A DNA stretch of 64,000 nucleotides from Escherichia coli (GTDB lineage: Bacteria > Pseudomonadota > Gammaproteobacteria > Enterobacterales > Enterobacteriaceae): assembly GCF_003018115.1 (NCBI RefSeq), contig NZ_CP027457.1. One strand, given 5' to 3'. How positions within the stretch are numbered: position 1 is the first letter of the stretch; each line of letters starts with the position of its first letter. Made by a program: the position numbers and the translations under genes. The notes under the pieces are model-generated. The model was not told the DNA's origin. It ran no database searches and was given only the letters and a program-made list of their open reading frames with translations. Below are positions 51,688 to 55,499 of this stretch, piece by piece.

Positions 51688-51838
51688 ATTGCGCTCCTGA
51701 TTGTTGCAGGTAGTGTCTCTCTTCGAAGCGGATAAGTCAAAAACATATATGACTTAACGAATATGTAAGTGTAGAGAAAGGTATAGGTGTGAATTTTGAG
51801 TTGGGTATTCATTTGAAAGGAGGTCTGGATCAGGACGT

Positions 51839-51925
51839 AAAAAAACCGACTTTGCGTCGGTTTTTACTCTTCAGCCTGAGTTGGTGGCTCTGGCCGGAGT
51901 GAGAATGCCCACATCTAACGGTTCA
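51839..51925 (-). ncRNA. agrB: AgrB-like small RNA (antitoxin sRNA of the dinQ type I TA locus), approximate
   Basis: First copy of a roughly 235-bp tandem repeat; minus-strand hairpin (aaccgacgcaaagtcggtt) plus 7-U terminator; position next to arsR as recalled for K-12. Boundaries approximate. Confidence 0.5.
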
Positions 51926-52070
51926 ATACTATTAGCCAGTGGCTAACATTGCAAGCGTTAGCGATTTCTTCAGCTGGAGAAGGGACAGTTTGCTATACAT
52001 GTTGGTGAAAGAGGATTTATATACGTTCATCGGGTCGCTGCCGTACCAAGCCTTGTCCGAATCCGGACGT

Positions 52071-52158
52071 AAAAAAACCGACTTCGCGTCGGTTTTTTTA
52101 CTCTTCAGCCCAGAGTTGGTGGCTCTGGCTGGAGTGAGATAGCCATCATCTAACGCAT
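52071..52158 (-). ncRNA. agrA: AgrA-like small RNA, second repeat copy, approximate
   Basis: Second tandem copy with the same hairpin plus U-run terminator on the minus strand; divergent from the LexA-box promoter. Boundaries approximate. Confidence 0.5.
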
Positions 52159-52218
52159 CAATGCTAATACCATACTGAAACTATTGCAAGGACGTGCTGG
52201 TTCTATAACCTGCATGTA

Positions 52219-52234
52219 CTGTATGATTATCCAG
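52219..52234 (+). promoter_or_regulatory. LexA (SOS) box, putative dinQ promoter operator
   Basis: CTGTatgattatCCAG fits CTGT-N8-ACAG with one mismatch; lies in the agrA/dinQ divergent region, with a tataac -10-like hexamer just upstream. Confidence 0.55.
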
Positions 52235-52311
52235 TTAGCTCTGAGGCATTTTCACTCTGGCAATGCGCTTGACATCCTCCACGCCCTAAAGGACGTGGAT
52301 TCCTGCTACGT

Positions 52312-53532
52312 TCAGGCTGTCGCCTGAATCATTTCGGTGGGTTCCTGCTTCAACGGGCGGCCTGACTGCACCATCCCTCCACAGGCAAGAACGGCGTGCC
52401 CCGCCGCTAAAATGTTACGAGCGCCGTTTACATCGGCGTTCGCTGTATATCCACATACCGGGCATCTGAATTGACTTTGTGACAGGCGATTTTCTTTCGC
52501 TGTATGACCACAGCACGCGCAACGCTGGCTTGTGTACGCTGGCGGAACAGCAAGCACCTGACCGCCACGCCAGAGCTGCTTGTACTCAAGCTGGCGGCGC
52601 ATTTCATACCAGCCCTGATCCAGTATCGAACGGTTTAAACCTGATTTTGCCCGGACATTGCGCCCCGGCAGGCTGACCGTACCCGATGCTGACTTTGACA
52701 TGTTGCTGACCTTCAAATCCTCAATGACTATCATTGCGTGGTTTTTGCTGACGGTCGTTGTGACTTTGTGAAGGTAGTCCCTGCGGATATTTGCGATACA
52801 GGAATGCAGTCGCTGTATTTTGCGTTTCTGCTTCTGCCAGTTGTTGCTGAATTTGACCTTGCGGCTTAACTGTCGCTGAAGTCTCGCCAGCTTCTTCTGG
52901 TTTTTCTGAAAACTGTTTACAGGCTCAAAGGCTGTGCCATCTGACAGCGTGGCGAGTTTAGCCACGCCAGCATCCAGCCCGACCATTGATGCTGAAGGGT
53001 GAACCGGAGTTGATACTTCACTTTCTGTCTGAATACTGATGTACCACTTACCGCAGGACTGGCTGACCGTGACATTTTTCACAACACCCGTGACCTGACG
53101 GCTATTCCGGTAGCGCATCCAGCCCAGTTTCGGCAGAAAAATACGGCTGTTTTCCTGATCGAGCTTAACGCCCTGCGGGTAGCGGAATGCATCATTCTGT
53201 CCCCGCTTTTTGAATCGGGGAAAAGCAGCCCGCTTCTGGAAGAAGTTTTTGTAAGCCCGCTCAAGGTCTTTCAGTGACTGTTGCAATGGCTGTGAGGGCG
53301 AATCTTTAAGCCATTGCGTTTCAGTGGCGTTTTTCCACTCAACCAGCCAGGAAGCCATTTTCCCGTAAGGGATGTATTTATTACCGGCCTCATGATTCTC
53401 ATTCTGACGTGCCAGAGCACGATTGAAAACGAAACGACATGCGCCTGCGAAGCGCCTCATTTCACGCTCCTGTTGACCACCGGGTCTTAACTGGAATTTA
53501 AATGCCTGTAGTCGTTTCATGGGCCAAATCAT
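52312..53532 (-). CDS. tnpB: TnpB (OrfB_IS605) RuvC-like RNA-guided endonuclease / accessory transposase protein
   Basis: 406-aa ORF (start may be Met5, [13 protein letters not shown]); RuvC-like acidic residues in [23 protein letters not shown]; zinc-finger CACCGH...CPVCGY. Confidence 0.85.
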
Positions 53533-53542
53533 ACTTTGGCCT

Positions 53543-53958
53543 ATGAAAAAAGAAACCGATATCCGACGCGGAAGGCATTGTGTTTTCCTGATGCATGTTC
53601 ACCTGGTCTTCGTTACTAAATACCGACGTCAGATTTTTGACTATGACGCGACAGAAAAACTACGCACTTACTTTTCAAATGTATGTGCTGATTTTGAAGC
53701 TGAACTGGTTGAAATGGATGGCGAACCAGATCACGTCCATTTGTTAATTAACTATCCTCCCAAACTGGCGATATCCAGTCTGGTAAACAGCCTCAAAGGC
53801 GTATCGGGTAGGTTACTGCGACGAGATCGACCAGATATTGCAGCCAGGTATTACTACAAAGCGTTTTGTGGAGTCCTGGCTATTTTGCCAGTAGCTGCGG
53901 TGGTGCACCAATATCCATCATCCGCCAATACATTGAACAACAGCAAACACCTGGTTAG
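53543..53958 (+). pseudogene. tnpA: IS200/IS605 Y1 (HuH) transposase TnpA, apparently frameshifted
   Basis: N-terminal HuH motif (HVHLVF, KYRRQ) and second HxH (DHVHLLI) in the ORF frame; conserved C-terminus LWSPGYFASSCGGAPISIIRQYIEQQQ is in another frame from about 53866, ending at 53958. The 175-aa track ORF (to 54046) is a frame-fusion artefact. Confidence 0.55.
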
Positions 53959-54015
53959 GTGGAAAACCGCACCTTATATCCCCGCCCTGAATGAACGGGG
54001 TTTTACGGCGCACCG

Positions 54016-54093
54016 GATAAAGCAATCATCGTTCTTGGGGCGTTAATTGCGCTGCTGGAACTGATCCGCTTTCTGCTTCAGCTTCTGAACTGA
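54016..54093 (+). CDS. dinQ: DinQ-like type I toxin peptide ORF (codons 3-27 present; no in-frame start codon)
   Basis: Encodes DKAIIVLGALIALLELIRFLLQLLN*, matching recalled DinQ from residue 3; upstream in-frame codons (TGFYGAP) contain no ATG/GTG/TTG back to a stop at 53992; convergent with gor. Confidence 0.5.
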   Translation, partial: DKAIIVLGALIALLELIRFLLQLLN

Positions 54094-54110
54094 TAGCGGA
54101 AACGTAATTA

Positions 54111-54139
54111 AGGGCTAAGAGCACACTACTCTTAGCCCT
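54111..54139. terminator. Bidirectional stem-loop between dinQ and gor
   Basis: Perfect 11-bp stem agggctaagag/ctcttagccct with 7-nt loop between convergent ORFs. Confidence 0.6.
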
Positions 54140-54146
54140 TTAACAT

Positions 54147-55499
54147 TTAACGCATTGTCACAAACTCTTCTGCCGCCGTTGGGTGAATGGCGACGGTATT
54201 GTCGAAGTCTTTTTTGGTTGCGCCCATCTTCAGCGCCACCGCGAAGCCCTGCAACATTTCGTCCATACCAAAGCCAATGCCGTGAATACCGACAATCTTC
54301 TCTTCCGGTCCAACGCACACCAGCTTCATGCGGCACGGCTGGCGGTGAGTGGTGACGGCGGTATACATCGCGGTGAAAGAGGATTTATACACTTTCACCT
54401 GATCGTCGCCGTACTGCTCGCGCGCCTGCGGTTCCGTTAAACCAACAGTACCAATCGGCGGATGGCTGAAGACCACGGTCGGAATGTTGCTGTAATCCAG
54501 ATGCTCATCCGGCTTGTTATTAAATAGGCGTTCAGAGAGGCGGCGACCCGCTGCAACTGCCACCGGTGTCAGTTCTACTGCACCCGTGTTATCGCCCACC
54601 GCGTAAATACCTTCAATATTGGTGTTTTGATATTTATCGACGACGATATAGCCTTTTTCGTTAGTTTTAACGCCAGCGGCTTCCAGGTTGATGTTGTCAT
54701 TGGCAGGCTCGCGACCAATCGCCCAAATCAGGCAATCCACCGTTTCACTGCGACCATCTTCCAGCTCCAGCGTCAGGCTGCCATCGGCATTTTTCACTAC
54801 CGCTTTCGGGATGGCGTTGGTGTGCAACTGCGGACCTTCGGCGTTCATCACTTCGACCAGCGTTTCAGAGATCATCGGGTCGAAGCTGCGCAGCGGCGCA
54901 TGTTTACGCACAAACAGATGCGTTTTCGCGCCGAGGCCGTTAATCACGCCAGCCAGCTCAACGGCGATGTAACCCGCGCCAACAACCGCCACGCGCTCTG
55001 GCAAAGCAGGAAGGGCGAAGAAGCCATCAGAATCAATACCGTATTCCACGCCCGGAATATCCGGGTGGCTCGGACGACCGCCGGTGGCGATCAGAATATG
55101 ATCGGCCGTGATGGTTTCACCGTTAACTTCCAGCGTTTTGGCATCAACGAAGCGGGCAAAACCTTTGATTACATCAACGTTATTTTTACCGAGCACGTTT
55201 TCATAGGAAGTATGAATACGGTCGATATAGGCGGTACGGCTGGCGATCAACGTTTCCCAGTTGAATTTATTGATAGTGGTATCGAAACCATAATCCGGAC
55301 CGTACATGTGGATCGCTTCACGGATTTGCGCCGCGTGCCACATCACTTTCTTCGGTACGCAGCCGACGTTCACGCAGGTGCCGCCCAGCTCTTTGGCTTC
55401 AATCAGTGCGCATTTCTGGCCGTACATAGCCGCGCGGTTGATGGAGGCGATACCGCCGCTGCCGCCGCCGATGGCGATGTAATCATAGTGTTTAGTCAT
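54147..55499 (-). CDS. gor: Glutathione reductase Gor
   Basis: 450-aa ORF with FAD-binding GGGSGG and redox-active CVNVGC motifs. Confidence 0.95.

Follow-up and report, generated by a model that had tools for sequence, protein, structure and literature searches.

A predicted omega-RNA template with a dinQ-derived guide in an IS609 copy of Escherichia coli

The IS609 copy at dinQ

We analyzed a 64,000-nucleotide stretch of the Escherichia coli contig NZ_CP027457.1 (assembly GCF_003018115.1), hereafter the window, in which a complete copy of IS609, a 1748-bp member of the IS200/IS605 family, occupies positions 52269..54016 of the minus strand within the leader of the toxin gene dinQ. The element is an ordinary, already catalogued insertion sequence (IS) whose guide-RNA module fits the known TnpB/omega-RNA pattern, and we consider it likely that this copy carries the template of an omega-RNA for its own TnpB, with a guide drawn from the dinQ flank. 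The locus is the E. coli arsR-gor spacer, with arsB and arsR to the left and gor to the right, in which the SOS-regulated type I toxin gene dinQ (regulation described in PMC3567139) and its antitoxin small RNAs (sRNAs) agrA and agrB are normally found. Here the two sRNAs are intact, placed by Rfam at 52069-52153 and 51837-51918 of the minus strand, and the LexA box with the dinQ promoter (52217..52236, plus strand) is colinear with K-12. Of the toxin gene itself, comparison with K-12 and strain EC-16-35 leaves a remnant open reading frame (ORF) running from codon 3 to the stop (54017..54093, plus strand), without the GTG start and the 5' untranslated region (UTR).

The boundaries of the element were set by comparison with 8 other E. 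coli copies at distinct chromosomal sites and ~40 copies on IMG/VR contigs. The top strand of IS609 is the minus strand of the window, so positions fall as the element is read: its left end (LE) starts at 54016 with CCGGTGCGCC... and its right end (RE) finishes at 52269 with ...GGAGGATGTCAA, the latter being the terminus shared by the copies, which diverge from the next base onward; across ~20 independent sites conservation reaches 52269 and is lost from 52268. A few variant copies start with CCAGTGCGCC or CCAAAGCGCC rather than CCGGTGCGCC. The IS609 annotated as a mobile_genetic_element in the K-12 MG1655 RefSeq record is likewise 1748 bp long and, despite 52 differences over those 1748 bp, has identical termini. 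The sequence-only reading of this DNA had let the flank begin beyond about 52261, which the alignment of copies corrects by 8 nt to an RE boundary at 52269, and the comparison with other copies that it had called for leaves the flank as dinQ DNA all the same. BLAST found a single RE in the window.

There are no terminal inverted repeats, as CCGGTGCG... and ...GATGTCAA are not inverted copies of one another, and both ends carry subterminal imperfect hairpins (LE 53980-54000, RE 52278-52299). The last four bases of the RE, TCAA (52269..52272, minus strand), are the transposon-encoded motif and the right cleavage site of TnpA, a concept paired with that of the target-adjacent motif (TAM) in earlier work (bioRxiv 10.1101/2023.03.14.532601), and GTCAA is invariant in nearly all copies. 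One insertion, common to 14 viral contigs (among them loci L017, L019, L020, L021, L028, L044, L052 and L056), reads GTCAC followed by GCTGCC instead, a difference that reflects either variation in the terminal motif or a one-base shift of the boundary.

Of 5426 complete E. coli genomes, 4307 contain IS609-like sequence at a query coverage of at least 80%, the median genome having it at 3 places. Positions 52100-54150 of the window are matched at 100% by five RefSeq genomes, the strains named being F9792, F8111-1SC3, F6326-C1 and 2014EL-1345-2, three of which are O169:H41 or of the same series. The prokaryotic genome annotation pipeline (PGAP) labels the genes of these genomes as an 'RNA-guided endonuclease InsQ/TnpB family protein', a frameshifted IS200/IS605 tnpA and a short dinQ; the 22-codon 'dinQ' coding sequence that it gives in the identical strain F9792 is the mere remnant described above.

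The two genes of the element have fared differently. The insQ-like tnpB (52312..53520, minus strand; 52312-53520/53532 in the ORF list) is intact and encodes 402 amino acids, ending in a stop codon at 52312..52314 (tca on the plus strand, TGA on the minus strand) that had been placed there from the sequence alone and that we confirmed by reading it. Its product aligns to the ISDra2 TnpB structures (E = 9e-57), with D183, E267 and D363 opposite the catalytic D191, E278 and D361, keeps both zinc-finger CxxC pairs (C334/C337 and C353/C356), scores 390.6 bits against a cutoff of 100 for NCBIfam guided_TnpB, and contains the Pfam domains HTH_OrfB_IS605, OrfB_IS605 and Cas12f1-like_TNB. The earlier statements that the RuvC-like acidic motifs and the zinc finger are kept, and that the protein looks catalytically competent, are thus both correct, the second as far as sequence goes.

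The Y1 HUH transposase gene tnpA (53543..53958, plus strand) is in contrast a pseudogene: owing to the loss of 1 nt near 53860 it lacks the C-terminal part, including the conserved SPGYF...RQYIEQQ tail (aligned to the intact tnpA of locus L007), while the N-terminal 107 amino acids still match NCBIfam transpos_IS200 with 111 bits, and PGAP calls the gene 'frameshifted' in F9792. Strain GF4-3 has the same junctions around an element that is 97% identical (~3% different) and carries another 1-nt deletion in tnpA (L003 position 1815), so that tnpA has decayed twice, once in the O169:H41 group and once in GF4-3, with tnpB intact in both. Most other E. coli IS609 copies that we inspected also combine a pseudogenised tnpA with an intact tnpB, and such decay of tnpA with retention of tnpB is general for the family (bioRxiv 10.1101/2023.03.14.532601).

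RNA-type conservation of the tnpB 3' end and right end

The evidence for an RNA lies in how the end of tnpB varies. Across 21 distinct tnpB sequences, the last 35 codons have a synonymous diversity of 0.061, as against 0.175 per codon elsewhere, with nonsynonymous diversity unchanged, and these codons rank lowest in synonymous diversity among 368 such windows (permutation p ~1e-4). Between 52380 and 52315 synonymous change is nearly absent and amino-acid changes are present, the signature of a non-coding constraint laid over coding sequence. The RNA fold has a z-score of -2.4 and an energy of -65.7 kcal/mol. Together with the consensus structure and the sub-threshold Rfam matches given below, the low synonymous variation outlines the core of a predicted omega-RNA scaffold of ~150 nt at 52269..52420 on the minus strand, of which the 5' limit is approximate.

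Three structural elements stand out within this core. Nearest the boundary is the RE subterminal hairpin (52278..52299, minus strand), which as DNA has a 9-bp stem, TCCACGTCC paired with GGGCGTGGA, including one G-T pair, and a TTTA loop, and as RNA would read TCCACGUCC-UUUA-GGGCGUGGA; it is recognised from the sequence itself, from compensatory changes in relatives and from its alignment to the 3' hairpins of HgcC and sot0042. This structure is the DNA hairpin bound by TnpA and, on the evidence of these alignments, would at the same time be the 3'-terminal stem of the predicted scaffold. Next comes a hairpin lying over the tnpB stop codon (52311..52328, minus strand), with a 7-bp stem, TTCAGGC/GCCTGAA, and a GACA loop of the GNRA type. 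Farther upstream, within the tnpB coding region, the helix CCUGUGGAGGG...CCCGUUGAAGCAGGAA (52342..52385, minus strand) coincides with a RAGATH-18 match and has a synonymous diversity of 0-0.04 across it. Both hairpins had been noticed in the sequence-only reading, the one over the stop codon at these same positions and better drawn as we give it here, the RE hairpin at 52279..52298, where it is indeed present with an extent one base greater on either side.

A consensus fold of 22 sequences revealed ten helices in which 98% of cells are paired, compared with 33-50% when the partners are slid. Compensatory changes occur in five pairs, amounting to 15 cells versus 4.0 +/- 1.6 in shuffles (0/500 shuffles), and include a G-C to A-U exchange in 2 sequences in the stop-codon hairpin (columns 198:205) and another in 5 sequences in the helix at 52342..52385 (columns 145:165). 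Given the modest diversity of the set, we take this consensus fold as moderate evidence, supporting rather than proving the structure.

Further support comes from a group of relatives, here group B (L022, L048-L051, L050), that keep the upstream scaffold and the terminal GGAGGATGTCAA and differ in the intervening sequence. In these relatives the stop-codon hairpin has been swapped for other GNRA hairpins, GCUGA-GCAA-UCAGC and UCUGA-GCGA-UCAGA, and the RE hairpin shows compensating base changes. This comparison was made by eye for the hairpin module, which MAFFT could not align once swapped.

Searches with the covariance models of Rfam, as the sequence-only reading had suggested for an omega-RNA, gave an answer that depends on the threshold. 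In E-value mode three families of TnpB-associated RNA match the minus strand, all within 52259-52439: HgcC with 24 bits against a gathering score of 50 (52259-52379), sot0042 with 17.5 against 88 (52278-52439) and RAGATH-18 with 28.1 against 44.9. At the gathering thresholds the search returned two AgrB-family sRNAs only and no omega-RNA family. Scores below gathering indicate resemblance to HgcC, sot0042 and RAGATH-18 and not membership in them. The earlier claim that the tnpB 3' end and the RE form a guide-RNA region nonetheless holds, in that a structured and conserved element resembling known TnpB guide RNAs lies there on the tnpB strand; its conservation is of the RNA type, and the omega-RNA for which it appears to be the template would presumably be produced from it.

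Target site, guide and the 166-bp loss

The left end provides the other half of the prediction. Directly abutting it is the target and putative TAM, TTTAT (54017..54021, minus strand), which on the plus strand overlaps dinQ codons 3-4 (GAT AAA). Among 13 independent LE flanks, 12 have TTAT (TTTAT in 7, GTTAT in 3, CTTAT in 1 and ATTAT in 1) and one has TTAC, and from these 13 insertions the TAM of the IS609 TnpB is predicted to be TTAT/TTTAT, with TTAT as its core. The sole TTAC copy, L022 from IMG/VR, has GTAAAG directly 5' of the LE hairpin, where all TTAT copies have GTAAAA. Target pairing by the LE guide tetranucleotide is the rule in IS608, and the joint change of guide from AAAA to AAAG and of target from TTAT to TTAC is the co-variation expected if the LE guide of IS609 pairs with its target in the same way. 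In the 2008 work of Barabas and colleagues, the IS608 target is reportedly TTAC and its LE guide AAAG; its RE is likewise said to end in TCAA, with GAAT 5' of the RE hairpin, and in IS609 the RE ends in TCAA and GAAT is located 5' of the RE hairpin. L022 is also a member of the group with the swapped right-end module.

In the window the LE subterminal hairpin is CCCCGTTCATTCAGGGCGGGG (53980..54000, minus strand), preceded by the LE DNA guide AAAA at 54004-54001. This form is found in the window copy and the GF4-3 copy, every other copy having CCCCGTCCTTCAGGGCGGGG, and the change from CCCCGTCCTTCAGGGCGGGG to CCCCGTTCATTCAGGGCGGGG weakens the inner base pairs of the hairpin. A frameshifted tnpA and an altered LE hairpin make it probable, as far as can be read from the element, that this copy is immobile unless another copy supplies TnpA.

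On the other side, the first 16 nt past the mapped RE boundary (52268-52253, minus strand) are GCGCATTGCCAGAGTG in DNA and would give the predicted omega-RNA guide GCGCAUUGCCAGAGUG (52253..52268), the length of 16 nt being taken from ISDra2. The sequence-only reading had derived the guide from dinQ promoter-proximal DNA and described the flank as the dinQ promoter/5' region; this stands, since the flank is colinear with K-12 up to 52268 and the guide DNA lies a short way downstream of its LexA box at 52217-52236, and what changes is the extent, the guide starting at 52268 and ending at 52253 and not at 52245. If dinQ transcription starts at ~52233, a position obtained by counting back 331 nt, the published length of the transcript (PMC5066626), from the dinQ terminator, we estimate that the guide lies antisense to dinQ mRNA positions of about +20 to +35.

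Wild-type dinQ has TTTAT directly before the guide sequence, so that the K-12 allele reads TTTAT followed by GCGCATTGCCAGAGTG (L001 1944-1964), as does EC-16-35. In the window copy the same sequence is preceded by GTCAA, which is no TAM and should protect the copy from being cut by its own nuclease. The guide has a single match in the window, with no others at up to 3 mismatches, and the flank sequence occurs once in 4602 of 5426 complete genomes, the dinQ locus being present in roughly 85% of them.

The insertion at dinQ departs from the family pattern in one respect. Compared with K-12, IS609 has inserted at yajI without a scar, as the family mechanism predicts; the dinQ copy has TTTAT at its LE and yet 166 bp of host DNA are missing beside it compared with K-12 (L001 1783-1948) and the closer strain EC-16-35. 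The lost segment holds the +44 processing region, the agrAB-complementary repeat and the GTG start codon, and loss of the 5' UTR and start means that dinQ is dead while its antitoxin sRNAs agrA and agrB remain. On the IS top strand the wild type reads GATTGCTTTAT, then 166 bp ending in GCGTTTAT, then GCGCATTGCC, from which it follows that the loss extends exactly from one TTTAT to the next; only two TTTATs exist on that strand of the 876-bp spacer.

Four histories are possible. A canonical insertion after the second TTTAT may have been followed by slippage between 6-bp TTTATC repeats made by the first base of the LE, an event that might have been selected because tnpA read-through would give a 5'-truncated, +44-like and translatable dinQ mRNA. 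Alternatively, two insertions may have been resolved by IS-IS recombination, a TnpA-mediated event may have involved a second target site, or the deletion may have preceded the insertion. Under the slippage, recombination and prior-deletion histories, the element has a canonical RE junction and the guide expected for homing to wild-type dinQ. Intermediates would have junctions reading TTTAT followed by CCGGTGCG and preceded by AAAGCG (site 2 intact), or GTCAA followed by CAATCACC (site 1 intact). When the 5426 complete genomes were searched with a chimeric query, neither TTTAT site was found to carry IS609 beside an undeleted 166-bp segment, the best coverage of 51% representing empty sites. 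No IS-free allele already lacking the 166 bp was found among the top 40 matches, all of which were wild type and in two pieces spanning 419 bp, in a search that was not exhaustive.

Proposed activity, rival readings and known systems

If the copy behaves as its relatives do, the tnpB mRNA (minus strand) would continue through the RE, by homology with ISDra2 and related elements, and its last ~150 nt (about 52420-52269) would fold into the omega-RNA, or right-end RNA (reRNA), scaffold, with ~16 nt read from the adjoining flank (52268-52253, GCGCAUUGCCAGAGUG) as the guide once the transcript is processed. TnpB with this RNA would then cut double-stranded DNA bearing the TAM TTTAT (core TTAT) directly 5' of the 16-nt sequence, and its target would be the IS-free dinQ allele, which in K-12 is TTTAT followed by GCGCATTGCCAGAGTG. 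Such cutting destroys empty sites or donor joints, and recombination with an IS-bearing copy restores the element (bioRxiv 10.1101/2023.03.14.532601); whether TnpB is an active nuclease here, and any benefit that this copy may draw from it today, belong to the same conditional chain.

Several observations weigh against this proposal. The covariation arises from few events in sequences that have not diverged far (mean column identity 90%), TnpA imposes a DNA-level constraint of its own on the RE hairpin, and the Rfam matches fall short of their gathering scores. Within the element, a consensus-based scan for promoters returned nothing sigma-70-like on the minus strand. Literature searches on omega-RNA, TAM and expression of IS609/insQ turned up only surveys and one screen, in which an IS609-family TnpB was purified as one of nine candidates (PMC12781874). 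The surviving dinQ promoter and ~35 nt of its transcript point into the RE, antisense to the predicted omega-RNA and tnpB, so SOS induction should yield RNA antisense to both and sense to the tnpA pseudogene, and firing of this promoter through the region could interfere. Finally, with tnpA dead and the LE hairpin altered, the donor joint that TnpB is supposed to police may never form here. This immobility weakens the case for a present guide-RNA function and has no bearing on what the sequence encodes.

The last of these points leads to the reading in which the copy is an inert relic, a homologue of omega-RNA templates in an immobilised element where TnpB and RNA are not made in useful amounts or find no target, and which has no present function. 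We regard this as unlikely. In its favor are the independent frameshifts of tnpA here and in GF4-3 at the same site, the pseudogenised tnpA of most E. coli copies, the altered LE hairpin, the missing promoter prediction and the convergent transcription expected from dinQ. However, both dinQ lineages and nearly every inspected copy have kept tnpB intact despite repeated tnpA decay, the scaffold of the window copy has no disruptive changes relative to the consensus, and wild-type dinQ with TAM and target is common in the species and would be a target whenever such DNA enters the cell. A reading that goes to the other extreme, and that we hold to be improbable, makes the dinQ copy an SOS-controlled allele-converting element: its omega-RNA would cut incoming or sister wild-type dinQ, repair would install IS609 and delete the toxin 5' UTR and start codon, antisense RNA from the LexA-regulated promoter would tie the nuclease to DNA damage, and the 166-bp TTTAT-to-TTTAT loss could be a product of TnpA and TAM and not of slippage.

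Two further readings deny the RNA a guiding role altogether. That the hairpins are nothing other than signals for single-strand recognition and cleavage of the RE by TnpA seems to us very improbable: the RE and LE hairpins do have a common core, CGTCC-TTCA-GGGCG, and the tetranucleotide rules do fit those of IS608 (TCAA with GAAT, TTAT with AAAA), but TnpA requires just a subterminal hairpin and a guide tetranucleotide, whereas the constraint reaches into tnpB, over 100 nt upstream from the RE hairpin, with its synonymous sites frozen, the GNRA loop of the stop-codon hairpin survives replacement of its sequence, and three RNA families match. We find it scarcely credible that the structures do no more than stabilise the 3' end of the tnpB mRNA or terminate it, as the stable hairpin over the stop codon and the low fold energy might suggest, since neither hairpin has a T-run after it, a terminator scan found none there, conservation ends exactly at the transposon end and not at a terminator, and the region is homologous to guide RNA families.

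Taken with the guide-RNA reading that we prefer, the significance beyond annotation is small. More than 4300 of 5426 complete E. coli genomes contain, at near full length, an element in which an omega-RNA module can be recognised, and with the RE boundary (after ...GTCAA) and the TAM (TTAT) defined, a guide becomes predictable for every IS609 copy. As Rfam holds no family that reaches threshold for the IS609 RNA, building one from these alignments would close a gap in annotation. At dinQ itself a type I toxin gene has been inactivated with its antitoxin sRNAs and SOS promoter surviving; the 166-bp TAM-to-TAM loss, the dead toxin beside its antitoxins and the antisense SOS promoter are minor curiosities.

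Among characterized systems, a close one is ISDra2 of Deinococcus radiodurans (PDB 8EXA, 8BF8, 8H1J), whose TnpB, like that of IS609, is ~400 amino acids long and has both a zinc finger and the D-E-D triad of RuvC. In ISDra2, as predicted for IS609, the RNA is templated by DNA overlapping the 3' end of tnpB together with the RE, and its guide comes from the adjoining DNA beyond the RE. In both elements the TAM is the insertion target of the transposon, TTGAT in ISDra2 and TTAT/TTTAT in the IS609 studied here, and the two differ in gene order, tnpA and tnpB being co-directional in ISDra2 and divergent in IS609. Also close is IS608 of Helicobacter pylori, with which IS609 shares subterminal imperfect hairpins, insertion 3' of a tetranucleotide with no target duplication, an RE ending in TCAA with GAAT 5' of its hairpin, and an LE guide that co-varies with the target, the difference being TTAC with AAAG in IS608 versus a TTAT target with an AAAA guide in IS609.

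At the RNA level, HgcC (RF00062), sot0042 (RF02656) and RAGATH-18 (RF03064) have been described from the 3' ends of tnpB genes, and for RNAs derived from RAGATH-18 a role as TnpB guides is proven (PMC4615843, PMC11061315). HgcC and sot0042 share with IS609 the 3' hairpin and a GGAGGAnGUCA tail, the HgcC consensus ending in ...CCccCGcccUUuAgggCGggGAGGAGGUCAG and then variable sequence, which is almost the IS609 RE, and RAGATH-18 shares the CCUGUGGAG...GAAGCAGGAA helix. Unlike the IS609 RNA, however, HgcC and the sotRNAs come from archaea, and the TnpBs found with RAGATH-18 are those of IS607. A further close system is ISGst of Geobacillus stearothermophilus (Meers et al., bioRxiv 10.1101/2023.03.14.532601), whose TnpB cuts the donor joint, made of TAM and RE flank, after which recombination restores the element, a model that carries over to IS609. 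ISGst, too, has many copies without a working tnpA, and differs from the IS609 at dinQ in that the latter adjoins a 166-bp loss of host DNA and has a predicted RNA that matches a common wild-type allele of a toxin gene.

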